Assembly: GCA_029561735.1 (NCBI GenBank)
Contig: JAKQWZ010000064.1
Location: 3,583-67,582 of the forward strand
DNA: 64,000 nucleotides
Source: Candidatus Omnitrophota bacterium
Lineage (GTDB): Bacteria; Omnitrophota; Gorgyraeia; Gygaellales; Profunditerraquicolaceae
Reading direction: 5' to 3'
The notes under the pieces are model-generated. The model was not told where the DNA came from. It saw only the letters and a program-made list of their open reading frames with translations, and did not search any database. A program made the translations under genes and the position numbers. Below are positions 7,859-20,680 of this stretch, piece after piece (within the stretch, counting starts at the first letter, position 1; each line of letters begins with the position of its first letter).

Positions 7859-9079
7859 TTATATAAGTGTGCCTGTCCTGCAGACTTCGGAATATTTTTT
7901 TGCGCTTTCCCTGACGGTGCGTTTGAAATTGGCGTAATCCATCTCCACAATACCGAAACGGGGGCCAAAACCCTTATCCCACTCAAAATTATCCAGCAAA
8001 GACCAATATAGATAACCCAGGACATTGACCCCGGAGTTTATCGCCCGGTGCAATTGTGTAAGATGATCGCGTATGTAATTCCATCTCTGACCGTCATCAA
8101 GAGTGCAAATGCCGTTTTCTAATATAAAAACAGGCAGATTGTATTTTTTTATACCTGTCAATAAACTATACAGTCCTTGCGGGTATATATCCCAGCCCAT
8201 TGTATTCTTGGGCAGGGGCTTTTCGGGCTTACGGCTGGTATCCAGCGAAAAATTCCTTAAACTCCAGCCGCCGACATCCACGACGCTGCGAGTATAATAA
8301 TTCACGCCGATATAATCTAGCGATTTACGTCTGATCAATTTATCCAGTATAGCCAAATTAAACCATTGCTGCCTCAGTTTAGATGCGATATTATTCTTTA
8401 AATTTTCCGGGCTGGCGACAAAAGCCATCATATTATGGGCAATACTGACTCTGGGCCGGCCCAGATTATTGCGTTTATAATAGCTGTGAATAAAGCGGTA
8501 TGCCTCCACATGCGCATTAACCATATTTCCGGTTGCCACCCAGGCCTTTAGAAAGGATTTCTTTTGCGGAGGCCACTGCCCCATTATATAACCGTGCGAT
8601 ATCAAAACCATAGGCTCGTTAATAGTCACCCAGAACTGCACATGCTTACCCAGGGCTTCCACAACTTTATTGCAATAGCGCAGAAAATAACCTGCGGAGG
8701 CTTTATTTTCCCAACCTCCAAGCCGGGAAAACCAGATAGGATTAGTAAAATGATGCAGGGTAACAACAGGTTCTATATTGCGTTCTTTTAAGGCGAGTAT
8801 TACCTGAAGATAGTGGGCAAGCTCTAAATCAGAGAATGTGTGTTCCTGCGGCTGAATCCTGGCCCATTCGATTGAAAGGCGATGGGCATTATGATGCAGG
8901 CCTTTGACAATATCAAAGTCCTGTTCAAAAAGTTCATAATGGCAGCATGCTTTGCCTGACCTATCCTTTTGTCCAGTAACGATTTCCCATTCCCACCAGT
9001 CACTGTTAGAATTATCGCCTTCGACTTGATAAGCCGAAGTAGCCGCGCCCCAGAGGAAACCTTCGGGAAACTTTATCAT
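7859..9079 (-). CDS. Glycoside hydrolase family 1 (beta-glucosidase-like)
   Basis: 406 aa. FLWGAATSAYQVEG, TINEP (acid/base Glu) and ILENG (nucleophile Glu) are present. The stop codon directly abuts the patatin gene start. Confidence 0.9.
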   Translation of the reverse strand: MIKFPEGFLWGAATSAYQVEGDNSNSDWWEWEIVTGQKDRSGKACCHYELFEQDFDIVKGLHHNAHRLSIEWARIQPQEHTFSDLELAHYLQVILALKERNIEPVVTLHHFTNPIWFSRLGGWENKASAGYFLRYCNKVVEALGKHVQFWVTINEPMVLISHGYIMGQWPPQKKSFLKAWVATGNMVNAHVEAYRFIHSYYKRNNLGRPRVSIAHNMMAFVASPENLKNNIASKLRQQWFNLAILDKLIRRKSLDYIGVNYYTRSVVDVGGWSLRNFSLDTSRKPEKPLPKNTMGWDIYPQGLYSLLTGIKKYNLPVFILENGICTLDDGQRWNYIRDHLTQLHRAINSGVNVLGYLYWSLLDNFEWDKGFGPRFGIVEMDYANFKRTVRESAKKYSEVCRTGTLI

Positions 9080-9098
9080 GGGCTTATTATAGCATCAG

Positions 9099-9127
9099 AC
9101 AAAAAAAATCCCAACAAAAATGTTGGG
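9099..9127 (-). terminator. Intrinsic terminator, expression platform of the c-di-GMP riboswitch
   Basis: Minus strand CCCAAC-ATTTTT-GTTGGG followed by A then T8. It lies about 20 nt upstream of the GH1 ATG. Confidence 0.7.
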
Positions 9128-9140
9128 ATATATAAACTAC

Positions 9141-9257
9141 TGCCGATAAAGGCCTGCTACCTTTACTGCGGCAACCCAGCCACCATATTACCCCACTTCG
9201 GTAATTTAGGTCTGTGGCTTTGTGTCCCCGCCTTTCGGCGGGTTTACCCTTATCGGC
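9141..9257 (-). promoter_or_regulatory. c-di-GMP-I (GEMM-I) riboswitch aptamer
   Basis: The minus strand reads GCCGATAAGGGTAAACCCGCCGAAAGGCGGGGACACAAAGCCACAGACCTAAATTACCGAAGTGGGGTAATATGGTGGCTGGGTTGCCGCAGT...CCTTTATCGGC. It shares the GGYAAACC, GAAA-capped hairpin, GGGACNCAAAGCC and GGYNGCNGGGUUNCCG blocks of the Vc2-type aptamer, as I recall them. Confidence 0.8.
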
Positions 9258-9263
9258 AATTAA

Positions 9264-9292
9264 AGTATACCACGTACCCCTGATGTTTTCAA
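9264..9292 (-). promoter_or_regulatory. Sigma-70-type promoter of the riboswitch transcript
   Basis: Minus strand TTGAAA-17 nt-TATACT. The predicted TSS is about 9257, the first base of the outer helix of the aptamer. Confidence 0.65.
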
Positions 9293-9314
9293 GGGTACGT
9301 GAATTTTATTTATT

Positions 9315-9749
9315 TTATTGCTGAACCACAGCTGCAGTAGCCAGGTATTTGCCCAGAACCTGCCATGTCTTAGGGCCAACCTTGCCGTCAACCGCAAGCC
9401 CGTTGTCTTTCTGAAATGCTTCAATGGCCTTCTTTGTCTTAGGCCCTATCTTACCGTCAATAGAACCAAGATAATAATTCGCATTCTTAAGTGCGGTCTG
9501 AATATCCATTGCCGATGGCTTAAACGGGCCTGAAGGCGGCAGCTGTTCAAGCTTTGACTCCGGGGCAGCTGCATATGTCACTACCGGGCTTACTTCAGCC
9601 GCCGGGACAGTTGAAACAGCTGTCTGCGCCGTTAACGCCTCCATTGAAGTAGGCTCCTGTAAAGCCGAAAGGTCAGATTCTTTTTTACCGCAACCTGCCA
9701 AATAAATCCCTATTGCCGCAATCGCGATGATAAAAACAAATTTTTTCAT
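9315..9749 (-). CDS. Lipoprotein with a C-terminal peptidoglycan-binding (PG_binding_1-like) domain
   Basis: 144 aa. Lipobox YLAGC|GK. The repeated DGKIGPKT / DGKVGPKT motif is typical of PG-binding domain 1. Confidence 0.75.
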   Translation of the reverse strand: MKKFVFIIAIAAIGIYLAGCGKKESDLSALQEPTSMEALTAQTAVSTVPAAEVSPVVTYAAAPESKLEQLPPSGPFKPSAMDIQTALKNANYYLGSIDGKIGPKTKKAIEAFQKDNGLAVDGKVGPKTWQVLGKYLATAAVVQQ

Positions 9750-9895
9750 TTTATTTCTCCCTTTAATATTTTGTTGGATCCACTGCCATCTTAAAGACTC
9801 TTTTTCACCCCCCTTAAAAAACTGATAGAGCGGCTAAACAAATGCTATTTTAATTTTATTCTTATTCCGTAAAAAATCAAATAAAAAAATCAATC

Positions 9896-10372
9896 CTATC
9901 TGCTTAACGATACTATTTTTAAGACATCTTTGGCGGATTTAGCGTTTTTTAGCTGCTCGACAATAAATTTATCCCTGACCAGGCGGGATATCTCAGCCAG
10001 AATCTTTAAGTGGCTTCCCACCTGCTCGGCAGGAGAAATCAAAACAAAGAACAGATAGGTCTTTTCTCCGTCAAGGGCCTTAAAATCTATGCCTTCTTTT
10101 TTCCTGGCAAAAGCAAGGACAAACTTTTTCGCTCCCTTATATTTAATATGCGGGATGGCTATACCGCCGCCTATTCCGGTAGAGCCCAGGCTTTCTCTTT
10201 CTTTTATTACCTTGAGCAATGTTTTTTTATTCCTGACCCTGGCTGCTTTAGCAATAAAATTAACCAGCTCTTCCAGCAAATCCGGCTTATTTTTACCTTT
10301 GAGCTCCAAATTAACCAGTCTCTCTTTAAGTAAGCCGCTTATTTTCAAATCCTTTGATTCACTCATTATCAC
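9896..10372 (-). CDS. PTS EIIA type-2 domain protein (PtsN / EIIA-Ntr-like)
   Basis: 158 aa. GIGGGIAIPH carries the phosphorylatable His. It lies 8 nt downstream of the MFS gene. Confidence 0.8.
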   Translation of the reverse strand: MIMSESKDLKISGLLKERLVNLELKGKNKPDLLEELVNFIAKAARVRNKKTLLKVIKERESLGSTGIGGGIAIPHIKYKGAKKFVLAFARKKEGIDFKALDGEKTYLFFVLISPAEQVGSHLKILAEISRLVRDKFIVEQLKNAKSAKDVLKIVSLSR

Positions 10373-10380
10373 CGCCCCGA

Positions 10381-11580
10381 TTATTGTATAGCCATTATCT
10401 TAGGATATTTTACACTTATAAATACAAAAAATAAAGCACAAATAATTCCGCTGGATGCCACAGTCAGGCAGACCCCAAAGGCCTGCGAGAATACCCCTGC
10501 CATCAAGTTGCCAAAAGGCATGATACCGGCAAAAGTAAACATGAATGCGCTCATAACCCGGCCCCTGAATTCATCATTTACCGTTGTCTGCAACAGGGTA
10601 TTGGTTATGCTCATGGCAGACACAGAAGACCATCCTGTGATTACCAGCACTGACAACGATAAAATGTACGATCTGGACAAGGCAAACAATACGATTGAAA
10701 GAGAAAATATTATGCTGGAAACAATAAGAAACCTGCCCTTATTTCGGAAATCCCCCATCTTGGCTAAAAGCAAGGCTGCTACCAGCGCTCCCAGTCCGGA
10801 AGCCGCCATAAGCATACCCAGGCCTTTGACCCCCACTTTAAGTACATCATTAGCAAATACCGGCATAAGTATGGCATAAGAGACACCAAAAAAGCTGCTT
10901 ACAGCGACCATAGAAATAAGTATCATTATAGTCGGATGGCTCTTGACATAAGACAAACCCTGGCCCAAGTCTTTCATAAAAGTCATTTCATTGCTGCGTT
11001 TCTGGGCAGGCCTGGTTTTAATTAACAGGAGCGCAATAATAACAGCCAGAAAACTTATTCCGTTGATATAGAAACAACCGGTCATGCCTATTGCGGCAAT
11101 AAGTATACCGGCCAGGGCCGGCCCGATGATCCGGCTGGAGTTAAAAGCTGCGGAATTCAACGCAACCGCGTTTAAAACCCGGTCTTTACCGACCAGCTCA
11201 AAAAGAATAGCCTGCCGGGCAGGCGCATCAAAAGACATTACAATGCCGTTTAATACGGCAATAAACATTATCTGGCTGGGAGTAATGACTTTAAATTGCA
11301 CCAGTAAAGCCAGAATAAATGCCAGCAACATAAAAGCATTCTGGGTAAAAAGCAATATCTTTTTCTTATTAACCCTGTCAGCAAATACCCCACCGAAAAG
11401 AGAAAGGAAGAAAACAGGGGCCAAACTTAAAAATCCCACCAGCCCCAAAAGGAATACGGACTTCGTCAAGTCAAACACCAGCCAGCTCTGGGCAAGGGCC
11501 TGTATCCAGGTGCCGATAAGCGATACAAACATGCCCAGCCAGTAAAGGCGGAAGTTCTTAACTTTTAATGAAGAAAACAT
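10381..11580 (-). CDS. MFS transporter
   Basis: 399 aa, 12 predicted TM helices, and a GGVFADRVNKKK loop motif. It starts 1 nt after the NuoI-like gene. Confidence 0.8.
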   Translation of the reverse strand: MFSSLKVKNFRLYWLGMFVSLIGTWIQALAQSWLVFDLTKSVFLLGLVGFLSLAPVFFLSLFGGVFADRVNKKKILLFTQNAFMLLAFILALLVQFKVITPSQIMFIAVLNGIVMSFDAPARQAILFELVGKDRVLNAVALNSAAFNSSRIIGPALAGILIAAIGMTGCFYINGISFLAVIIALLLIKTRPAQKRSNEMTFMKDLGQGLSYVKSHPTIMILISMVAVSSFFGVSYAILMPVFANDVLKVGVKGLGMLMAASGLGALVAALLLAKMGDFRNKGRFLIVSSIIFSLSIVLFALSRSYILSLSVLVITGWSSVSAMSITNTLLQTTVNDEFRGRVMSAFMFTFAGIMPFGNLMAGVFSQAFGVCLTVASSGIICALFFVFISVKYPKIMAIQ

Positions 11581-11581
11581 T

Positions 11582-12193
11582 TTAAGATTTCAGGACAGCT
11601 TCACGGCGGCAGCGCGGACAAAGTACTTTTATGCGGTCAGCCCGTTTTAATTCGCCTTCCTGCTTATCCTGTAAATGGCCCGTGCCGGACAGGCCCAGGT
11701 TAGCCAAATAAAAAAGCATAAGCGAGACGTTAGAAAAAACCAAGGGGCCGATTTTCCTGGCTACCCAAAGTATCTGGTCCTTGGGCGCAATAATTTCAGA
11801 GCAGCACTCGCACAGGACAAGTTCTTTTTCTATTTTTTGGCGCATAGTGTTTCTTTCTTCGGTTTTAGACAGCTCAAATTCATTGCCCAGAGTTATCCCT
11901 TTTTCCGTCGGACAATTCGCCTGGCATTGGCCGCAAAAGATGCATATATCCCAGCGTATTGTCAAAGTCCTTTTTCCTTTTCCGTTTGCCACTTCATCCT
12001 GAAATTCCAAAGCCCTGGCAGGGCAAACCTGCACGCAGGCAGTGCAACCGATACACTGTTCCTGACTAAATTGTGCCTTTCCGCGGAAACGCTCAAAGGG
12101 CTTATGGGGCTGGCGCGGAAAATCATTGGTATATGGCCGGCTGAACAATGACCTTACCGCCTCTTTTAATTCTCTTAATTTGGGATATTTCAT
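11582..12193 (-). CDS. Hydrogenase 2x[4Fe-4S] subunit (NuoI/EchF/HycF-like) with a Cys-rich C-terminal extension
   Basis: 203 aa. CIGCTACVQVCP and CIFCGQCQANCP are present, with extra CECC...CPRC motifs at the C-terminus. Confidence 0.8.
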   Translation of the reverse strand: MKYPKLRELKEAVRSLFSRPYTNDFPRQPHKPFERFRGKAQFSQEQCIGCTACVQVCPARALEFQDEVANGKGKRTLTIRWDICIFCGQCQANCPTEKGITLGNEFELSKTEERNTMRQKIEKELVLCECCSEIIAPKDQILWVARKIGPLVFSNVSLMLFYLANLGLSGTGHLQDKQEGELKRADRIKVLCPRCRREAVLKS

Positions 12194-12196
12194 ATC

Positions 12197-13966
12197 CTAG
12201 GCCTGCCTTCCTTTATTGAACAAGAAAGCTATAAAATAAGCCGCTTTACTTATACCGGAACTCAATATATTGTAAAAATCGAGCGATTCTTTCTGGATGA
12301 ATTTAAAAATAGCGTTTACAGCCGGCAGTTGCTGGAAAGTCCGGTAAAATTCAGTCGCCGGGAAGCTCGGGTTAAAAGACTGCGGGTCCTCCCCGCCGAT
12401 AAACAGATCATCTGTGCGGGATTTTTTTCCCGCAAGCATAATTTTCCAGAAAATAAAACCCAGCATTAATCCGGCGGCCAGAAGCGCAAATGTCAATGCG
12501 CTGTTCCAGGTCCCGATAAATAAAACCTGTTCGCCAAGCCAGGGTTGGATTACTATCTTTATAAACAACCCCGGCAATACGCCCAGGGTGAGGCATAACC
12601 CGGCCAGAATAATCAGAGAAACAAGGATATTTAACGTGGAATCTGTAGTAACTTTCTTATCAGGTGTATGGTCCTGGCCCAGGAATATGGCATGGATAAA
12701 TTTAACAAAACTGGCCAATGTCAACACGCTCCCAAACATCGCCGCTACAAGCGAGAATATAAGCAGGATGCGCATGAACGGATTAGTTGCCGCAGACAGT
12801 CCCACCAAAGTACTTTGATAAAGCATCCACTTGGAGGCAAACCCGTTAAAAGGCGGCACGCCTGAAATAGATAAGGCAAACACAAGCCCGCATATAAAGG
12901 TAAACGGCATGCCTAAAGCCAGCCCGCCGAGCTTATCCAGCTCAAAAGTACCTTTCTTCTCAGCAGCAGCACCTGCGGTAAAGAACAGCCCGCTTTTATA
13001 TATTGCATTATTGAGCATATGGAATACAGCCGCGGCGATTCCCAAAATATTCCCCGTGCCAAACCCGATAACCATATATCCTACCTGGCTAATGGCGTGA
13101 AAAGATAAAAGTTTTCTCAGGTCATGCTGGGCCATAGCCAGCATAACCGCAAACATAATAGTGACGCTGCCGGTTATCAGCAGGACTGCAAAAGCTATAT
13201 TATTCAGGACAAAAAAATCAGTGCAGATCCGCGCCAATAAATATATTCCCAATAGCTTATCCAGTGAAGCCGGCAAAATTGCCATTACCGGGACAGGGGC
13301 CTTATCTGCCGCATCCGGTATCCAGGTATGAAACGGAGCACAACCGGCCTTGGCAAGTGCGCCTGAAAGCATCAGCCCAAACGAGAGCCAGCTGACCGCT
13401 GAATTCAAAAGTACTTTAGGCCCGATCGGCATGATCGAAGTGCCGGTTAAATAAACGTAAAGGCTTATGCCTAATAACAGACAGAAATCCCCGAAACCAA
13501 CAATTGAAAAAGCCTTATTAGCGCTGGAACCCGAACCCAGGCTCAACAGACCATATAGTAAAATGAGGCATGCCCCCCATGAAAAAATCAACAAAATAAA
13601 ATCAAGAGAAAGGCAAACCAGATTAGAAAAAGCCAGCAGGGCTAAAAGATACGATAGGAATGCCCGGCTTGATTTCACCTGCCTGCAGCCAAGAGAATAA
13701 AGCACGGTAAAAAAGCAGAACACGCATGTAAAAAGCATAGTGAAACGGGATAGGTTATTTACTCCCAGCACTACGCTGTAATTACCGATGACTTTCAAAA
13801 CCAAAGCTGATGGAGGGTTTATAAACACCAAAACCGAAAAAAACAGGGCGGTAAAGGCGGCGAACAGCGCCAGCGCTTCTTTTGCTTTCTGTTTATTGAT
13901 AATCAACAAGACAGGGCTGAAAAGCAAAGGCAAAAAAACCAGAAAGAATATACTCTGCCAGATCAT
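12197..13966 (-). CDS. Antiporter-like membrane subunit (NuoL/EchA/HyfB-like)
   Basis: 589 aa and polytopic. Motifs of complex I subunit 5/Mrp type are present (WIPDA, FHMLNNAIYKSGLF). Confidence 0.8.
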   Translation of the reverse strand: MIWQSIFFLVFLPLLFSPVLLIINKQKAKEALALFAAFTALFFSVLVFINPPSALVLKVIGNYSVVLGVNNLSRFTMLFTCVFCFFTVLYSLGCRQVKSSRAFLSYLLALLAFSNLVCLSLDFILLIFSWGACLILLYGLLSLGSGSSANKAFSIVGFGDFCLLLGISLYVYLTGTSIMPIGPKVLLNSAVSWLSFGLMLSGALAKAGCAPFHTWIPDAADKAPVPVMAILPASLDKLLGIYLLARICTDFFVLNNIAFAVLLITGSVTIMFAVMLAMAQHDLRKLLSFHAISQVGYMVIGFGTGNILGIAAAVFHMLNNAIYKSGLFFTAGAAAEKKGTFELDKLGGLALGMPFTFICGLVFALSISGVPPFNGFASKWMLYQSTLVGLSAATNPFMRILLIFSLVAAMFGSVLTLASFVKFIHAIFLGQDHTPDKKVTTDSTLNILVSLIILAGLCLTLGVLPGLFIKIVIQPWLGEQVLFIGTWNSALTFALLAAGLMLGFIFWKIMLAGKKSRTDDLFIGGEDPQSFNPSFPATEFYRTFQQLPAVNAIFKFIQKESLDFYNILSSGISKAAYFIAFLFNKGRQA

Positions 13967-14583
13967 TTTATTAACGCCTCTATAAGGCTAAACGGTAATT
14001 TGACCGCAAACCCCAGTATTAATAATAAAACCCCCAGGCCAAAAGCCAGCCATAAAGATAAGGAATTATTTTCCTGCGCTTTTATTTTCGGCTCTCCCAG
14101 GAAAACCCGGTTAAATACCCGCATCAGATAAAACAAAGTCAGGAATGCACCGAATACAGCAAAAACTTCAATGACAATATGCCCCTCCTGGACCGAAGAA
14201 ATAGTTGTAAGCAATTTAGGCCAAAAACCTAAAAACGGAGGAATTCCCATTATTGAGAAGGCGCAAAGCAGAAATGCCAATGCGGTATAAGGCATTGCTT
14301 TTAAAAGCCCTGCTGTATGGTTAATATTATCAGAGCCCGTAGCCTTCTTTATTAAACTTGCGCATAAAAACAACCCGCATAACCCTATAACCTGAGAAAA
14401 TAAATATAATACAGACATGCGCATAGCCGCAATACCGCTCTGGCAAAAAGCCAAAAGCGAAAACCCTGCCTGGCTTAACGTAGCAAAAATAAGGATCTTT
14501 TTAAGGCTATTTTGCGCAACAGCTAAAAGCGCTCCTGTAATTATTATGGCGACAGCTGCAATAAGGGTAAGGTTTAAGCACAT
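13963..14583 (-). CDS. Half-length antiporter-like membrane subunit (C-terminal-half NuoN/MrpD-like)
   Basis: 206 aa and about 6 TM helices. LSQAGF...LFLCAS...MGIPPFLGFWPK resembles the distal half of NuoN/MrpD. It overlaps both neighbours by 4 nt and 10 nt. Confidence 0.55.
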   Translation of the reverse strand: MCLNLTLIAAVAIIITGALLAVAQNSLKKILIFATLSQAGFSLLAFCQSGIAAMRMSVLYLFSQVIGLCGLFLCASLIKKATGSDNINHTAGLLKAMPYTALAFLLCAFSIMGIPPFLGFWPKLLTTISSVQEGHIVIEVFAVFGAFLTLFYLMRVFNRVFLGEPKIKAQENNSLSLWLAFGLGVLLLILGFAVKLPFSLIEALIK

Positions 14584-15206
14584 TTGATTTTTATTTTTAA
14601 TAAGTTCCGGGCAATTTTTTTAGTGTGATAATAGATAGCTGCGGTAAAATCCAGCATGTTAAGAAACATGTTGCAGGAAAAAGGCGAGCAAAGCTTATTG
14701 ATCAGGCGCTCATTGTGGCGCCTGCGGTATTCATCAACCAGCGTGTCAATATGCTCCTGGCTTTTTAACACCTGCTTAAGCCTTCCCGGATCGTCAATTT
14801 CCAGCGCCTGAACCACTTCTTTAAAAGCGGCTTCGCTGCGGTTATAAAGCTCAACATACTCTTTTACCGCATCATCGCTAAATAGCAGCTTTTCTTCTAT
14901 TTTTATCTGCACTCTCTCCAGTATATCTTTACAGTAATCGCCGATAAGCTCCAGGTCTTCGACGACCTCCACGTAAATAATTACTTCTTTTTTTTCCGTT
15001 TCCTTTTTCAGGCCCTGTCCTGCTTCAATAAGCTCGCCGGTAAGCATCTTTTCAAAATCGTTAAGCCTGTTCTCATCTTCAAGGACTTTGGCCAAAAGCT
15101 CAAGGTCATGATCCATAAAGACCTTGAAAGTCCTTTGCCACATAGAAAGAGCAAGGTTTGCCATATCAGCTACTTTTTTCTTAATATTGCAGAAATTCTC
15201 GCTCAT
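14574..15206 (-). CDS. PhoU-domain protein embedded in the hydrogenase operon
   Basis: ATG at 15206 overlaps the TGA of the large subunit (ATGA). MSENF...LELLAKVLEDENRLNDFE...LELIGDYCKDILE resembles PhoU repeats with E/DxxxD motifs. The longer ORF-track start at 15263 would overlap the hydrogenase gene by 60 nt. Confidence 0.65.
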   Translation of the reverse strand: MSENFCNIKKKVADMANLALSMWQRTFKVFMDHDLELLAKVLEDENRLNDFEKMLTGELIEAGQGLKKETEKKEVIIYVEVVEDLELIGDYCKDILERVQIKIEEKLLFSDDAVKEYVELYNRSEAAFKEVVQALEIDDPGRLKQVLKSQEHIDTLVDEYRRRHNERLINKLCSPFSCNMFLNMLDFTAAIYYHTKKIARNLLKIKIKCA

Positions 15207-16402
15207 AAGCGGCCCTCCTTGATCTGCATAGTTTTTTCCTGGCATAACCTGACCAAATCCCACCCGTTCATTATCTTTTTATTTGTTGATTTATCAATAA
15301 CCGCCAGCCTCTCCGTACAGCAGTAACAGGGGTCAACCGCAGCCAAAGTAAGCGCTGCATCCGAAATGGTGCCGCCGACAGCTCCCACTTTGTTAGAAGC
15401 AACATTGGTAAAGCTGGGGGCGCGTATTTTCAGCCTTTGCGGGCGGTTAGTGCCATCGCTCTTGACAAAATGTATGCATTCTCCGCGCGGGGCTTCAACC
15501 CTGCCGATACCTTCTCCGGCCGGAATATCTTTTACATCTGAGTCAATTTCGCCTTTAGGCATTTTATCTAAACACTGCCTGATTATCCGGACACATTCAT
15601 ATAATTCCAGGATACGCGCTGTTGTTTTAGCAAGGATATCCCCTTCTTTTTCAATGATGACATTCCAGTCAAGCCTGGTTATCGCACCGTAAGGCTCATC
15701 CCTCCTGATATCAATATCAATTCCCGAAGCCCGGGCAGTAGGGCCGACAACACACCAGTCAATTGCCTGTTGCCGGGTAAGCCGTCCTACCCCTTTTAAC
15801 CGGCCCCTGATAACAGGGTCATCTTTTATGGCGCCGAGAAACAGGTCTATTGCCGGGGTAAATTCATCAAGAGTCTTTTTCAAAACCGGTATGTCTTCGT
15901 CTTTGATGTCCCGCCGCACTCCGCCGACCTTAAACATAGCGTAATTATTACGGTTTCCCGTAACCATCTCAAACATATCCAGCACCGGCTCGCGGTTTTT
16001 CCATGCCCACATCCAGACTGTGTTATAACCGATAAAATGGCCTACCAGCCCCAGCCAAAGCAAATGGCTGTGGATCCTTTGCAATTCATCAATAACCGTA
16101 CGGATATAAAGCGCCCTTTCAGGCACAACCTTGGACTCACCGCCCAATAAATCTTCAACTGAAAGCACATAGGCATAAGGATGGCTGGAAGAGCAAATAC
16201 CGCAAATCCTTTCCACTAAATACGGAACCTGGTCGTAGTGTTTACTTTCAGCTAATTTTTCTATACCCCGGTGGTTATAACCGATGATTATATCAATATC
16301 GACGACCTTTTCTCCATCCACATAAAGCTGAAAAAACTCCGGCTCTTCCTGCAAAGGATGATACGGGCCTATAGGAACTATAACTTTATGACTCATGTTC
16401 AT
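15203..16402 (-). CDS. [NiFe] hydrogenase large subunit, group 4 (EchE/MbhL/NuoD-like)
   Basis: 399 aa. N-terminal RICGICSSSH (RxCGxCxxxH) and C-terminal DPCYCCTER (DPCxxCxxR) supply all four Ni-Fe Cys ligands. About 32 aa follow the C-terminal motif. Confidence 0.9.
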   Translation of the reverse strand: MNMSHKVIVPIGPYHPLQEEPEFFQLYVDGEKVVDIDIIIGYNHRGIEKLAESKHYDQVPYLVERICGICSSSHPYAYVLSVEDLLGGESKVVPERALYIRTVIDELQRIHSHLLWLGLVGHFIGYNTVWMWAWKNREPVLDMFEMVTGNRNNYAMFKVGGVRRDIKDEDIPVLKKTLDEFTPAIDLFLGAIKDDPVIRGRLKGVGRLTRQQAIDWCVVGPTARASGIDIDIRRDEPYGAITRLDWNVIIEKEGDILAKTTARILELYECVRIIRQCLDKMPKGEIDSDVKDIPAGEGIGRVEAPRGECIHFVKSDGTNRPQRLKIRAPSFTNVASNKVGAVGGTISDAALTLAAVDPCYCCTERLAVIDKSTNKKIMNGWDLVRLCQEKTMQIKEGRL

Positions 16403-16820
16403 TCCTCAATGGAAAATCTCCTTGCGGCCAGTCTTCAGCCAAAAGAAGCCTTTTTAAATTGGGATGATTCTTAAAATTTATCCCGAGCATCTCCCAGATT
16501 TCGCGCTCAATCCATTCTGCCCCGGAGAAAACCGGAGTAATTGAATCAATTTCAGGGTGCTTTCTATCTTCAAGCATCGTTTTTATAGAATATACTTCGC
16601 CTGCCGGGTCATACATAAAATGATACACTATCTCAAGCCCGGCTGGCGTATCCGTGCCTGAAGCAGTGGAGAACCTTAAGCCCAGCTCTTTGAATAAGAG
16701 GCGCGCAACGCCGAAAATATTGGCTTTATTTATCGCAAAATAGATTCTTCGCGCAGAAGGCTCTTTCCAATCCAGGATTTTATCGCCTAACCTCTCTTTG
16801 ATCCTCTCTCTGATATCCAT
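16386..16820 (-). CDS. Hydrogenase subunit, NuoC/EchD-like
   Basis: 144 aa. ...AEWIEREIWEMLGINFKNHP matches the NuoC family C-terminal motif. Confidence 0.8.
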   Translation of the reverse strand: MDIRERIKERLGDKILDWKEPSARRIYFAINKANIFGVARLLFKELGLRFSTASGTDTPAGLEIVYHFMYDPAGEVYSIKTMLEDRKHPEIDSITPVFSGAEWIEREIWEMLGINFKNHPNLKRLLLAEDWPQGDFPLRNEHES

Positions 16821-16823
16821 AAG

Positions 16824-17249
16824 TTACTTACCCTTATTTATCTTTTTTACCAGTTTTGTAATACCCGCAATTATTGCCTCGGGCTTCGGAGGGCAGCCCG
16901 GGATATAAAGATCAACCGGCAATATCTCATCAAGCGGCTCTCTGACATTGTAACTATAGCGAAACATATGCTGGGAAAGCGCGCATTGGCCGACAGCAAC
17001 CACTACGCACGGTTTAGGCGCCTGCTCATAGATTTTTTTCATCCTCGGCACGGACTTTCTATTCATAGCTCCGGTAATCAACAAAGCGTCGGCATGCCTG
17101 ACCGAACCGATCAATTGCACGCCAAAACGCTCTATATCATGCCTGGGCGTAAAACAATCAAGAATTTCAATATCGCAGTTATTACATGATCCGCAGCTTA
17201 TATGAAAAACCCAGATCGACTTAGTTAATGCTTTAGTTTTTATGCTCAT
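16824..17249 (-). CDS. [NiFe] hydrogenase small subunit, NuoB/EchC-like
   Basis: 141 aa. CGSCNNCDIE, GQCA and IPGCPPKPE provide the ligands of the proximal [4Fe-4S] cluster. Confidence 0.9.
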   Translation of the reverse strand: MSIKTKALTKSIWVFHISCGSCNNCDIEILDCFTPRHDIERFGVQLIGSVRHADALLITGAMNRKSVPRMKKIYEQAPKPCVVVAVGQCALSQHMFRYSYNVREPLDEILPVDLYIPGCPPKPEAIIAGITKLVKKINKGK

Positions 17250-18160
17250 TATAACCCCACGGCAGCCAGTATAACGCTAATAACAGCCATTATCGTAACC
17301 GGGCCCCAGAAAAATCTTAACGCCTGATCAATACGTATACGGGGATTTGTGTTCTTAATCAAGACAGCTAACAATACTATACCGATATATTTAGGAATAA
17401 GCAACATCCATCCCAGGTCTTTGCCCATAAATAGACAAATAAGCAATAAAGGCATAGTGTATAGAAGAACGGCTTTGGTCAATTTAAATACAGCCAGAAG
17501 CGGTCCGGAATATTCTATTAAAGTCCCGCCCATGATCTCCTGCTCTGCCTCTGATATGTCAAAGGGGGCAAAACCTAATTTAGCCTGCATGGCAAAAAAT
17601 GCCGCAATAAAAGCCAGCGCACCTGAAAACGAGAATATGTTTGAGCCAAAACTGGCCTGATAATTGATTATCGACCCCAGCTGGATAGAATCCTGGCATC
17701 TTATAATTACCGCGATTAATGATAAAATAAAAGGCAGCTCATACCCTAAAATCAGCTTCATTTCACGGCTGGCGCCGACTGACGCCAGAGGATTGCGCGA
17801 GCTCGAAGCGCCGATCATCATGGAAACAGCCGGCATAGTCAAAAGATAAAGTATGACTATAATATCTGCGTAGAAGCTTTCCGAAGGCCAGAGCATCACT
17901 TTACCTAATACAGTAGCTGCTAGGACCAGGCTTAAAAACCCAAGATAAGGCGACAGGATAAAAGTCCAGCGGCTGCTGCGCGGGATTATAGTTTCTTTGC
18001 CAAAAAGCTTGGCTATATCAATAAAATTCTGGTACCATGGCGGGCCGACGCGCCATTGCAGGCGTGCGGATATTTTACGGTCAAACCATCCGGCCAGCAG
18101 GCCGACGCAGACGGCAGTCAGTAATCCCGGGAATACCAGAAAATTTAACAGAATCTTCAT
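17249..18160 (-). CDS. Membrane subunit NuoH/EchB/HycD-like
   Basis: 303 aa and 8 TM helices. RLQWRVGP, PFDISEAEQEI and EYSG motifs are of NuoH type. Confidence 0.85.
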   Translation of the reverse strand: MKILLNFLVFPGLLTAVCVGLLAGWFDRKISARLQWRVGPPWYQNFIDIAKLFGKETIIPRSSRWTFILSPYLGFLSLVLAATVLGKVMLWPSESFYADIIVILYLLTMPAVSMMIGASSSRNPLASVGASREMKLILGYELPFILSLIAVIIRCQDSIQLGSIINYQASFGSNIFSFSGALAFIAAFFAMQAKLGFAPFDISEAEQEIMGGTLIEYSGPLLAVFKLTKAVLLYTMPLLLICLFMGKDLGWMLLIPKYIGIVLLAVLIKNTNPRIRIDQALRFFWGPVTIMAVISVILAAVGL

Positions 18161-18191: not shown

Positions 18192-18689
18192 TTACTTCTT
18201 CTTTGGCTGCGCCTTTATGTCCTCTCTGGACCACTGCCTGGTATGCACAGCCAGGTGTTCTCCGACAAAATATATATCCTGCTCTAAATCCTCTTCAACA
18301 TCCTTAATCTCTACTGCTTTTTTAGGGCAAGTTGTAATGCACTTAGGAAGCCTGCCCTTCTGCCCGACGCAAAAATCGCATTTTGAATCTAAATATGGTA
18401 TAAAATCCTGGAATATCACCCCGAACGGGCAAGCCAATGAACAAGATTTACAACTCGTACAACGCATTTTATAACGCTTAATATGCCCTTCGCCGGTACG
18501 CTCAAGCGCGTTATGATAACAGGCGTTAACGCAGGGCGCCTGTTCGCAATGCCGGCAGATAGTGGCAAATGTTGCATATTCCCTTAAATTAGCAATGCCA
18601 TTATTCTGCGGATGATAAAAATAATCGCAGGCAACCTTACACTCTCTGCAAGTGCTGCAAATCTCCAAATCAATGAATAAGCGCGCCAT
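18192..18689 (-). CDS. 4Fe-4S dicluster ferredoxin-like subunit (HycB-like)
   Basis: 165 aa with several CxxCxxCxxxC(P) motifs (CSTCRECKVAC, CRHCEQAPC, CTSCKSCSLACP, CDFC...CPKKA). Confidence 0.8.
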   Translation of the reverse strand: MARLFIDLEICSTCRECKVACDYFYHPQNNGIANLREYATFATICRHCEQAPCVNACYHNALERTGEGHIKRYKMRCTSCKSCSLACPFGVIFQDFIPYLDSKCDFCVGQKGRLPKCITTCPKKAVEIKDVEEDLEQDIYFVGEHLAVHTRQWSREDIKAQPKKK

Positions 18690-18695
18690 ATTTAT

Positions 18696-19511
18696 TTAAT
18701 CCCAGATATCATGGGTATCTTTTAGTTCTTCGTAAGTAAATACCGGGCCGTCTTTGCATATGTAGAATTTGCCTATACGGCAATGCCCGCATTTGCCCAA
18801 CCCGCAGGACATTGATTTCTCCATTGAAAGATATATATCCGCAGGGGCAAAACCTAAATCGAGCAGCTTAAGCGTAACAAACTTCATCATAATCGGCGGC
18901 CCGCAGACAATTGCAACCGCCTTTTTCATATCTATAGGTAGGTCATTCAATACCGTGGTAATCAACCCCACATGCCCTGTCCAAGAAGGGTCTCCTACAT
19001 CAACGGTAGTCAGCCAGTCTACCCTCTCTTTGGCAGCCCAAACCGGGATCTGGTCTTTATAAATGATATCCTGTGCAGTGCGGGCGCCGTAACGAAATAC
19101 TATCTTATTATACTTATTAATATCGGCGAATAATCCGAACAAAAGCGCCCTCAGCGGAGCCAGACCCACCCCGCCTCCGACGATCAAAACATCTTTACCT
19201 TCAAATTTATGCAAAGGGTACCCTTTTCCATACGGGCCGCGGATACCTAAAGAAATGTTTTTGGGGGAATTATGCAGTAAAGAAGTAACCTTCCCGGCAT
19301 TCATTATAGTTACGTCTATCTTCTCTTTTACTGCCGGGTCCGATGACGGAGTAAACGGGGCCTCCCCTATGCCGGGCAGGGTCAATTCAATAAACTGGCC
19401 GCATTTAAAATCAAAACGTTCTTTTGGGCGTATAACAAAAGTTTTGATTTTGGAGGATTCGGTAATAATATTTTCCAGCACGCCCTCAATAGGTTTATAG
19501 ATATTTTTCAT
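18696..19511 (-). CDS. FAD/NAD(P)-binding oxidoreductase with C-terminal [2Fe-2S] (HydG / AsrB / PyrK-like)
   Basis: 271 aa. FNR-like fold motifs (APFTPSS, LIVGGGVGLAPL) and a C-terminal CGLGKCGHC cluster motif. Confidence 0.8.
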   Translation of the reverse strand: MKNIYKPIEGVLENIITESSKIKTFVIRPKERFDFKCGQFIELTLPGIGEAPFTPSSDPAVKEKIDVTIMNAGKVTSLLHNSPKNISLGIRGPYGKGYPLHKFEGKDVLIVGGGVGLAPLRALLFGLFADINKYNKIVFRYGARTAQDIIYKDQIPVWAAKERVDWLTTVDVGDPSWTGHVGLITTVLNDLPIDMKKAVAIVCGPPIMMKFVTLKLLDLGFAPADIYLSMEKSMSCGLGKCGHCRIGKFYICKDGPVFTYEELKDTHDIWD

Positions 19512-20569
19512 TGCGCGAGATTCAACTTTTTTGCCAGGTCTTTTAACACTTCCCTGATGTCAATCTTGCCCGGGCATACTTCAATACATCTGCCGCAACC
19601 GCAGCATCCCGGGATCTTAAGATGTTCAAAGAAAAAATCAAATTTCTTAGTAAACCTGAAACGCAGGCGCTGCGCGCGCATCTTATTAGGATTAGCGCCC
19701 CCGGCAACCCGGGCATAATTTGCATAGAGACAGGAATCCCACATCTTGACTTTTTCGTTTACGCCTGCTGACTTACGGTCTTCAAGTAAAAAACAATGGC
19801 AGGTATCACAGATCAAATTGCATCCACCGCATTCAACGCAAGTCTGCATAAACTGGCTCCATGTATCAAGGCTGAATCCCTCTTTAATCAGGCGCTGCTG
19901 TATTGACGTCGGCGGGATGTTTTTCGGAGCCAATTCTCTTTTTAACCTTTCAATCAGGTTATTTCTTTTTGCCAGGCGCGCAGCTATCTGGGTATCTTTG
20001 GCAACTGCAAAATATTCCGGGTAATTATTTACAAGTTCCTGCCCTTTTTCAGAGCCGATCTCGGCTAAAAAACCGTCATTAAGTGGGGATAGGTTCATAT
20101 CAAAGCCGGTTGTCGGATGCGGTAAAACATCCATACTCAGGCAAAAGCAAACTTCTTTAAAAGCAGTGCAATCGCTGGAAATTAATATCGTATTTTCTCT
20201 TCTGGCGCGGTACAGCGATTCTTCGGCGGCTCCTTCCAGAAAAACAAAATCCTGAATACGGTGCGCCTGGATATCGCAGCTTTTTACCCCGAATATTATA
20301 ACCTGCCCTAAATCCTTCAAATTATCTTCACAAGCAAAATAATCCGCGGCTTTTTCCTTGGCCAAGGTAAAGAACGATTTAAGCGGCTCAACACAGCGGT
20401 AAGGGTTAAATAGCAGAGTGTCTTTAGCAGCGGTTTTTTGAAAAGAATAATCCACTTCCTTGGTATAATTCTGCGGTTTGGCTGCAGGAGAAAATACCGT
20501 ATAATTATCTCTTAGCCGCTCCACAAGGAAAGAGAGTTTATCTGTAGCAATAAAATATACCTTATTCAT
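19508..20569 (-). CDS. Fe-S subunit, sulfhydrogenase beta (HydB) / AsrA-like
   Basis: 353 aa. CVECGGCNLICDTCHC and CCGCGRCIEVCP motifs. It overlaps the next gene by 4 nt. Confidence 0.7.
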   Translation of the reverse strand: MNKVYFIATDKLSFLVERLRDNYTVFSPAAKPQNYTKEVDYSFQKTAAKDTLLFNPYRCVEPLKSFFTLAKEKAADYFACEDNLKDLGQVIIFGVKSCDIQAHRIQDFVFLEGAAEESLYRARRENTILISSDCTAFKEVCFCLSMDVLPHPTTGFDMNLSPLNDGFLAEIGSEKGQELVNNYPEYFAVAKDTQIAARLAKRNNLIERLKRELAPKNIPPTSIQQRLIKEGFSLDTWSQFMQTCVECGGCNLICDTCHCFLLEDRKSAGVNEKVKMWDSCLYANYARVAGGANPNKMRAQRLRFRFTKKFDFFFEHLKIPGCCGCGRCIEVCPGKIDIREVLKDLAKKLNLAQ

Positions 20570-20651: not shown

Positions 20652-20680
20652 AATATACATTACCTGCCTATTTTTGTCAA
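20652..20680 (-). promoter_or_regulatory. Sigma-70-type promoter of the hydrogenase operon
   Basis: Minus strand TTGACA-17 nt-TATATT, about 85 nt upstream of the first gene. Confidence 0.6.

Follow-up and report, generated by a model that had tools for sequence, protein, structure and literature searches.

A conserved PhoU-fold gene embedded in predicted group-4 [NiFe]-hydrogenase operons, mainly of Candidatus Omnitrophota

Introduction

Among living enzymes, group-4 [NiFe]-hydrogenases are the nearest kin of respiratory complex I. Their subunit composition is considered well established, and we are not aware of any regulatory or PhoU-like component described in them. Here we analyse a 64,000-nucleotide stretch of DNA from a Candidatus Omnitrophota bacterium (contig JAKQWZ010000064.1 of assembly GCA_029561735.1; the whole stretch is called the window below), in which a gene for a PhoU-like protein of 210 amino acids (aa) lies among the structural genes of a predicted operon for such an enzyme. 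The gene is conserved and built into more than 100 homologous operons, mostly labelled Omnitrophota, and we infer that its product serves the hydrogenase module as a dedicated partner without a catalytic role, in the form of a regulatory subunit or of an assembly factor.

Two described enzymes are useful for comparison. The 14-subunit membrane-bound hydrogenase (Mbh) of P. furiosus (6CFW) has in common with the operons studied here a Nuo-like core (H, B, C, D and I), and its antiporter/Mrp module is found in relatives of the window; compared with Mbh, the operons here add an AsrA/AsrB/HydN-type input module. We know of no PhoU-like subunit in the solved Mbh structure. In the formate hydrogenlyase of E. 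coli, HycH/HyfJ is a small soluble protein encoded within a group-4 structural operon, neither a redox nor a membrane subunit, that acts as an operon-encoded factor binding the large-subunit precursor. It is a possible functional analogue of the PhoU-like protein, but it belongs to a different fold family and has no detectable sequence relationship to it.

With regard to the fold, PhoU itself (TIGR02135; structures 1T72, 4Q25, 1SUM and 2I0M) is likewise a soluble protein of about 210 aa with six helices in two three-helix repeats, and its signature L-E-x-I-G-D-x-x-x-D is kept in repeat 1 of the PhoU-like protein. PhoU holds back the Pst transporter, and Na/Pi carriers have PhoU domains as appendages; how PhoU acts at the molecular level is a matter of debate. 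Unlike PhoU, the PhoU-like gene has hydrogenase genes as neighbours instead of pstSCAB/phoR, and its family has motifs of its own, IKIEEKLLFS and C-x-P-x-x-C-N-M-F-L-N-M-L-D-F. The PhoU domains of Na+/phosphate (Na+/Pi) cotransporters (NptA/YjbB; PF02690 + PF01895) share with it a K-I-x-E-x-x-x-F-S linker and an R-L-x-x-x-x-C motif, but they are fused to a membrane carrier of about 340 aa, whereas the PhoU-like protein is free-standing among hydrogenase subunits.

Omnitrophota genomes have been reported to carry a "group 4g" Mbh linked to Mrp, and these reports contain no mention of PhoU. An earlier note on the window held that no hydrogenase or complex-I-type assembly with a PhoU component was known, and the open-access literature that we found agrees with it, since no PhoU-hydrogenase association is described there, including in a 2026 survey of group-4 gene clusters. 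Mentions of PhoU for T. saccharolyticum, T. kivui and E. coli complex I proved irrelevant, being canonical PhoU mutations or the string "pHout". The enzyme class and the fold family are already known, and what is new is an undescribed conserved accessory component.

The PhoU-like gene in its operon

The host operon runs on the minus strand from 20569 to 11582 in the order AsrA, AsrB, HydN, NuoH, NuoB, NuoC, NuoD large subunit, PhoU-like gene, two antiporter-like genes and NuoI/HycF (Table 1). With the large subunit, NuoB, NuoC, NuoH, NuoI and the antiporter-like genes all assigned, its gene content identifies it as a predicted group-4 membrane-bound [NiFe]-hydrogenase (Mbh/Mrp-type) operon. 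The large subunit carries the Ni-binding motifs RICGICSSSH and DPCYCCTER, in both of which the CxxC is invariant in the alignment, and bears an extension of about 34 aa at its C-terminus; among PDB sequences, MbhL of P. furiosus matches it best (6cfw_L, E 2e-83).

The ATG of the PhoU-like gene (15206–15204) and the TGA of the large-subunit gene (15205–15203) form an ATGA overlap, and its TAA stop (14576–14574) lies 10 nt inside the next open reading frame (ORF), whose ATG is at 14583. Most genes of the operon overlap or abut their neighbours, so the coupling of the PhoU-like gene is no different from that of the bona fide subunits. The earlier note was right about the coordinates, the overlaps and the motif DLELIGDYCKDILE (residues 84–97 of the protein), although it did not state that the strand is minus, and the gene is indeed embedded and translationally coupled in a group-4 [NiFe]-hydrogenase operon, as judged from the two overlaps and the profile matches of the subunits. 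It had also described the 3′ overlap as one with a membrane-subunit gene; the 10-nt overlap stands, but the gene in question is a remnant of 206 aa, compared with 446 aa in the related locus L005 (L005:6357–7697), owing to an in-frame deletion of 717 bp. The deletion lies just past the start-codon region with the microhomology TTAC at its junction, and it removes about the first seven transmembrane helices and keeps the overlap with the PhoU-like gene; it may be a real strain variant or an assembly artefact.

Two other readings of the region were considered. A longer PhoU-like ORF starting from GTG at 15263 (229 aa) is disfavoured, since the position of the Shine-Dalgarno sequence and the N-termini of the homologues fit the ATG. 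A candidate internal promoter for the gene, a 10/12 match at 15297–15270, is at chance level (32 sites, against 24 ± 6 in shuffled sequence).

Fold and family

The PhoU-domain identity proposed in the earlier note holds. Pfam PhoU (PF01895) matches the protein in two stretches with 66.1 bits (cut-off 23.5) and is its sole above-threshold Pfam domain. The AF2 model (mean pLDDT 92.3, pTM 0.90) has six long helices (residues 3–32, 35–64, 69–104, 111–137, 153–169 and 175–202) in two tandem three-helix repeats, which together make the six-helix bundle that defines the PhoU superfamily. The best PDB matches in Foldseek are full-length PhoU proteins, including 1T72 and 4Q25 (Aquifex and Pseudomonas), with TM scores of 0.84–0.89 over 203–207 columns at 13–17% identity (15–17% for the Aquifex and Pseudomonas proteins), and a profile of 54 family members matches PDB PhoU chains with E 2e-9. 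The protein is soluble and acidic (pI 5.4), with a maximal 19-residue Kyte-Doolittle average of 0.97 and no membrane segment. It is a true PhoU-fold protein and not a PhoU orthologue, scoring 56.6 bits with the equivalog TIGR02135 for PhoU proper (cut-off 130.25) and 17.8 with NF008332 (cut-off 342).

Homologues of the protein fall into 381 clusters, which together with the dN/dS ratio given below mark the ORF as a real gene rather than a chance reading frame. An exhaustive search of 1.84 billion representative proteins gave just 11 clusters at E <= 1e-30. Outside the clade linked to hydrogenases, the protein is closest to the C-terminal PhoU domains of Na+/Pi cotransporter family proteins of about 540 aa, with 24–31% identity over about 195 residues. 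These explain the misleading names "phosphate:Na+ symporter" and "Na/Pi cotransporter family protein" that JGI and NCBI give automatically to relatives of the gene. Members of the cotransporter family do carry Na_Pi_cotrans (PF02690), as in P0140, P0154 and P0158, and none was found in the 210-aa protein. We also note a 331-aa relative (P0141) in which a single PhoU repeat, 49% identical to the window protein, is fused with an outer-membrane efflux (OEP) domain; it is probably a chimeric contig or gene call.

Membership in the PhoU domain family, together with such automatic names, might suggest a phosphate-homeostasis protein (PhoU/NptA-type, acting with Pst, Pit or a Na/Pi carrier) that merely rides in the operon, or a link between phosphate status and H2 metabolism. 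We consider this highly improbable. The score with TIGR02135 is far from the cut-off, the protein is stand-alone with no transporter domain, and in about 100 hydrogenase-operon loci with the gene it is flanked on both sides by hydrogenase genes, with no pst, pit or nptA beside it, relocated copies included (see below). No pst/phoBR linkage occurs between positions 9.3 and 27 kb in the window, where the flanks outside the operon hold housekeeping genes only.

The protein has 35 invariant positions, which cluster in helix 3, in the E-K-L-L-F-S loop between the repeats and in helix 6. In repeat 1 all three residues of the acidic motif E86-x3-D90-x3-D94 are invariant; in repeat 2 D186 alone is kept (L182-x3-D186-x3-A190, in the degenerate NMLDFTAA). 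Residues C92, C173, C178 and H194 are conserved within the main clade. An Fe-S or Ni site formed by the conserved cysteines was rejected, as C92 and C178 are not kept in the second subfamily and only C173 is.

Conservation within the operon

A scan of one genome per GTDB species with the PhoU-like family gave 53 loci, nearly all labelled Candidatus Omnitrophota, as are the closest homologues; taxon labels are those recorded, and a few (Planctomycetales, Patescibacteria, Margulisiibacteriota) are probably wrong. The PhoU-like gene lies immediately 3′ of the large-subunit gene in 58 of 58 PhoU-anchored loci and is directly followed by an antiporter-like gene in all 57 that extend far enough, and across relatives its start and stop codons overlap or nearly abut the adjoining genes. 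The membrane arms with which it occurs have three architectures: two antiporters with a full Mrp set, one antiporter with a full Mrp set, and antiporters without Mrp, as in the window. For this comparison, made on window positions 11582–14583 and loci L001, L004 and L039, a full Mrp set is MrpB-G.

Homologues with only 32–39% identity are still within the same type of operon, and here the gene has several positions. Diverged homologues follow the large subunit in L059, L063, L064, L148 and L149, lie between MrpG and NuoI in L060, L061, L118, L125 and L127, and between NuoH and NuoB in L062; each of the positions to which the gene has been relocated adjoins a gene of the hydrogenase module. Locus L065 has a tandem pair of diverged PhoU-like genes, of 207 aa each, 3′ of the large subunit (8680–9949), which hints at a heterodimer or at subfunctionalisation. 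In L063 the genes hycI-hypA-hypF-hypC lie 3′ of the operon and the PhoU-like gene is among the structural genes. The hydrogenase context is gone at about 29–33% identity (L146 and L147). The strongest argument that the PhoU-like protein works with the hydrogenase is that its gene, even when relocated, has stayed in the operon.

Selection and co-divergence

Over the 53 species, the median identity to the window is 57.8% for the PhoU-like protein, which compares with 59.1% for NuoI, 61.7% for NuoC, 63.0% for NuoH and 46.1% for AsrA. The dN/dS ratios against the 89%-identical relative L005, which are rough since dS is near saturation, are about 0.04 for the PhoU-like gene, 0.03 for NuoB, 0.09 for NuoC and 0.11 for NuoI. 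Purifying selection on the PhoU-like gene is thus comparable to that on the structural subunits.

An exploratory mirror-tree comparison of 39 non-redundant loci shows that distances in the PhoU-like protein co-vary with those in NuoD, NuoB, NuoC, HydN and AsrB. The correlation with NuoD is 0.63 raw and 0.36 partial, and the partial correlation with NuoB is 0.30. The same comparison links NuoB with NuoD (0.48), NuoC with NuoD (0.31) and NuoH with NuoI (0.55), pairs that are known neighbours in the structures of complex I and Mbh, and also HydN with NuoI (0.56). Subsets restricted to a single architecture (10 and 12 loci) tie the PhoU-like protein to the Nuo/HydN/AsrB half and not to Mrp. The comparison assigns the gene to the hydrogenase module and cannot single out one subunit. 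Mrp divergence is separate from that of the Nuo-type genes, which suggests module swapping. The co-divergence may reflect physical association or, equally, swapping of modules 3′ of the gene. Under either cause it speaks against a specific tie to the antiporter module.

These results bear on the leading idea of the earlier note, a gate on the ion-translocating subunits. A cytoplasmic protein that gated or regulated the membrane arm (antiporter-like or Mrp subunits) would resemble the PhoU domains on Na/Pi cotransporters, which are the nearest outside relatives of the protein, and this role would suit the usual site of the gene, immediately 5′ of the first antiporter-like gene and overlapping it. 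Nevertheless we find it improbable. The raw correlation with the antiporter-like subunit is 0.04, and the partial correlations with antiporter/Mrp are zero or below; the gene is kept unchanged with three different membrane arms, one of them Mrp-less; and in the window it is intact and strongly constrained even though the adjacent antiporter is without its N-terminal half.

Regulatory subunit or assembly factor

We tentatively favour, at a probability of roughly 0.4, an accessory regulatory subunit of the hydrogenase (NuoB/C/D/I-type) module. We do so because the protein is conserved like the structural subunits and its gene is among the structural genes, with hyp/hycI separate (L063), and because elsewhere PhoU and proteins with PhoU domains put a brake on energy-coupled membrane machines. 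A soluble cytoplasmic six-helix PhoU-fold protein would have been recruited to the Omnitrophota group-4 [NiFe]-hydrogenase with AsrAB/HydN-type electron input and would be produced in step with the large subunit via translational coupling. It might then dock on the cytoplasmic hydrogenase module by its most conserved face, comprising helix 3 (E86xxxD90xxxD94), the E-K-L-L-F-S loop and helix 6, and act as a facultative regulatory "brake" on the enzyme, much as PhoU does on Pst and PhoU domains do on Na/Pi carriers.

Several observations weigh against a regulatory subunit, and some of these come from operons without the gene. A metagenome scan with a large-subunit alignment, the less biased of our two samples, gave 80 loci at 59–84% identity, the best 80 of at least 572 matches. 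The PhoU-like gene is present in 33 of the 80 (after the large subunit in 30, after MrpG in 3); 21 are complete operons without it, 15 are partial operons in which the antiporter gene comes straight after the large subunit, and the remaining 11 are uninformative. The large subunits of the PhoU-less complete operons L066 and L068 are 81–84% identical to that of the window (84% for L066). Furthermore, the C-terminal extension of the large subunit is of the same length in operons with and without the gene, and the canonical metal-site chemistry of PhoU appears to be half retained, the acidic motif of repeat 2 having been lost. The mirror-tree signal is weak (10–39 loci) and may reflect recombination breakpoints 3′ of the gene rather than contact. 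The pattern of PhoU-less operons would be expected of a transient assembly factor no less than of a regulator. Support for the regulatory subunit comes throughout from comparative genomics, from which physical binding, partner and regulatory effect are inferred.

In L066 (10001–12597) and L068 (10001–12590) the stop of the large-subunit gene directly overlaps the antiporter start, and the two loci are natural minus-PhoU controls. Among all PhoU-less loci, 17 of 36 have a 4-nt overlap between the large-subunit stop and the antiporter start, and in all but five the gap or overlap is at most 21 nt. No hidden or diverged PhoU-like copy was found within ±10 kb in these loci (hmmsearch --max, E <= 10), nor is a replacement gene present in them, save for an unexplained gap of 343 nt in L109 (11194–11538), the sole PhoU-less operon with a sizeable space between large subunit and antiporter.

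On a neighbour-joining tree of large subunits, built without bootstrap values, the clade of the window is nearly all PhoU-positive with scattered losses (L066, L068, L097, L100, L073 and L092), L066 branches beside the window and L005, and deeper clades are patchy for the gene. This distribution indicates that the gene is old in the enzyme family but dispensable. We found no large-subunit residues that track its presence; the best columns are clade markers missing in deep PhoU-positive lineages. The "stoichiometric co-production" for which the earlier note argued is accordingly not that of an obligatory subunit, given the 21 complete operons without the gene, of which L066 is the window's neighbour on the tree. 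On the other hand, neither of the two findings that would have refuted the note was made: the gene is present in most of the close orthologous operons, where absence from all would have suggested a lineage-specific insertion without function, and it has the match to a PhoU-family profile given above.

A transient maturation or assembly factor for the large subunit, HycH/HyfJ-like and possibly Ni/Fe-handling, would act on the precursor, binding it ahead of C-terminal cleavage or docking, and would no longer be part of the complex once finished. Taken alone we regard this as doubtful, and at the same time as nearly as likely as a regulatory subunit. In about 90% of the loci with the PhoU-like gene, its translation is coupled directly to that of the large subunit; NuoD is also the subunit with which its distances correlate best, and facultative loss is easily tolerated for a chaperone. 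Repeat 1 retains the acidic E/DxxxD motif of T. maritima PhoU2 (1SUM), which reportedly binds multinuclear metal clusters there, and the cysteines and the histidine listed above are conserved in the main clade, although across the subfamilies this is true of C173 and of neither C92 nor C178. An extension of about 30 aa is kept at the C-terminus of the large subunit, and L063 has a gene for a HycI protease; there, however, the dedicated hyp/hycI genes are separate from the PhoU-like gene. An assembly factor is also harder to reconcile with lineages in which the gene is far from the large subunit (after MrpG or NuoH) and with conservation as high as that of structural subunits. In the protein itself there is no Pfam match to the HycH or Hyp families at E <= 0.01, the only matches being PhoU and a sub-threshold MEKHLA.

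To return to the regulatory subunit that we favour, a more specific form of it, in which a stoichiometric subunit would reversibly switch the complex-I-like, ion-translocating hydrogenase on or off, or couple and uncouple it, on a metal, phosphate or energy signal, seems unlikely.

Other features of the operon and its flanks

The coordinates of the operon genes and of the signals near them are collected in Table 1. Genes like AsrA, AsrB and HydN open every related operon (L001–L145), and such a beginning points to an input module linked to NAD(P)(H); ferredoxin is the partner assumed in the papers on the Omnitrophota "group 4g Mbh". The NuoI-like subunit at the other end (203 aa) has a C-terminal extension with CxCC ... 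CxxC and is closer to HycF/HyfH than to NuoI proper. An MFS_3 gene trails NuoI in many related loci as well as in the window, where it is probably co-transcribed with the hydrogenase operon, to judge from its spacing and from this recurrence. Further 3′, at 9896–10372 of the minus strand, lies a PTS EIIA_2 (PtsN-like) gene, which among the flank-annotated loci is found in the window and L005. Elsewhere in bacteria, EIIA-Ntr proteins are known as regulators of ion transporters and of PhoR.

Table 1. Genes and signals of the hydrogenase operon and its 3′ neighbour in the window
Feature	Position	Strand	Basis and remarks
Sigma-70-like promoter match, TTGACA-17-TATATT	20652..20680	-	Consensus match only (11/12); best site in the gap 5′ of the operon
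AsrA-like Fe-S subunit	19508..20569	-	Pfam Fer4_22; first operon gene, a position kept in related loci
AsrB / sulfhydrogenase-gamma-like FAD/NAD(P)-binding subunit	18696..19511	-	TIGR02911 and NF006220 matches below cut-offs
HydN-like 4Fe-4S ferredoxin subunit	18192..18689	-	Pfam Fer4_11; NCBIfam HydN/DmsB-type
NuoH/MbhM-like membrane subunit	17249..18160	-	Pfam NADHdh
NuoB/MbhJ-like small subunit	16824..17249	-	Pfam Oxidored_q6
NuoC/MbhK-like subunit	16386..16820	-	Pfam Complex1_30kDa
[NiFe] large subunit, NuoD/MbhL-like, 399 aa	15203..16402	-	Pfam Complex1_49kDa, NiFeSe_Hases
Shine-Dalgarno sequence GGAGG	15214..15218	-	Read from sequence; 7 nt 5′ of the PhoU-like ATG, within the 3′ end of the large-subunit gene
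PhoU-fold accessory gene, 210 aa	14574..15206	-	ORF, translation, Pfam, AF2, homologues, dN/dS
Truncated antiporter-like (NuoL/M/N / MrpD-type) gene, 206 aa	13963..14583	-	Pfam Proton_antipo_M, C-terminal half only
Antiporter-like subunit, 589 aa	12197..13966	-	Pfam Proton_antipo_M
NuoI/HycF-like 2x[4Fe-4S] subunit	11582..12193	-	Pfam Fer4 families; NF009053/NuoI; last hydrogenase gene
MFS_3 (EntS-like) transporter gene	10381..11580	-	Pfam MFS_3; begins 1 nt past the NuoI stop

Significance

The practical weight of the finding is limited, as the gene is dispensable, occurs mostly in Omnitrophota and has no assigned mechanism. Pairs of operons with and without it, such as the window or L005 on one side and L066 on the other, already provide the controls that heterologous expression would need. 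A strongly conserved PhoU-fold gene that is locked into over 100 operons of a widespread uncultured phylum suggests that the control or assembly of these hydrogenases has a layer so far unrecognised, and it gives research on PhoU a second, non-phosphate context that could help to show what the fold does. If the more specific form above, a stoichiometric switching subunit, is true, the Mbh/Ech/complex-I superfamily would gain its first known dedicated regulatory subunit, and PhoU domains would be general-purpose brakes for energy-coupled membrane machines and not phosphate-specific.

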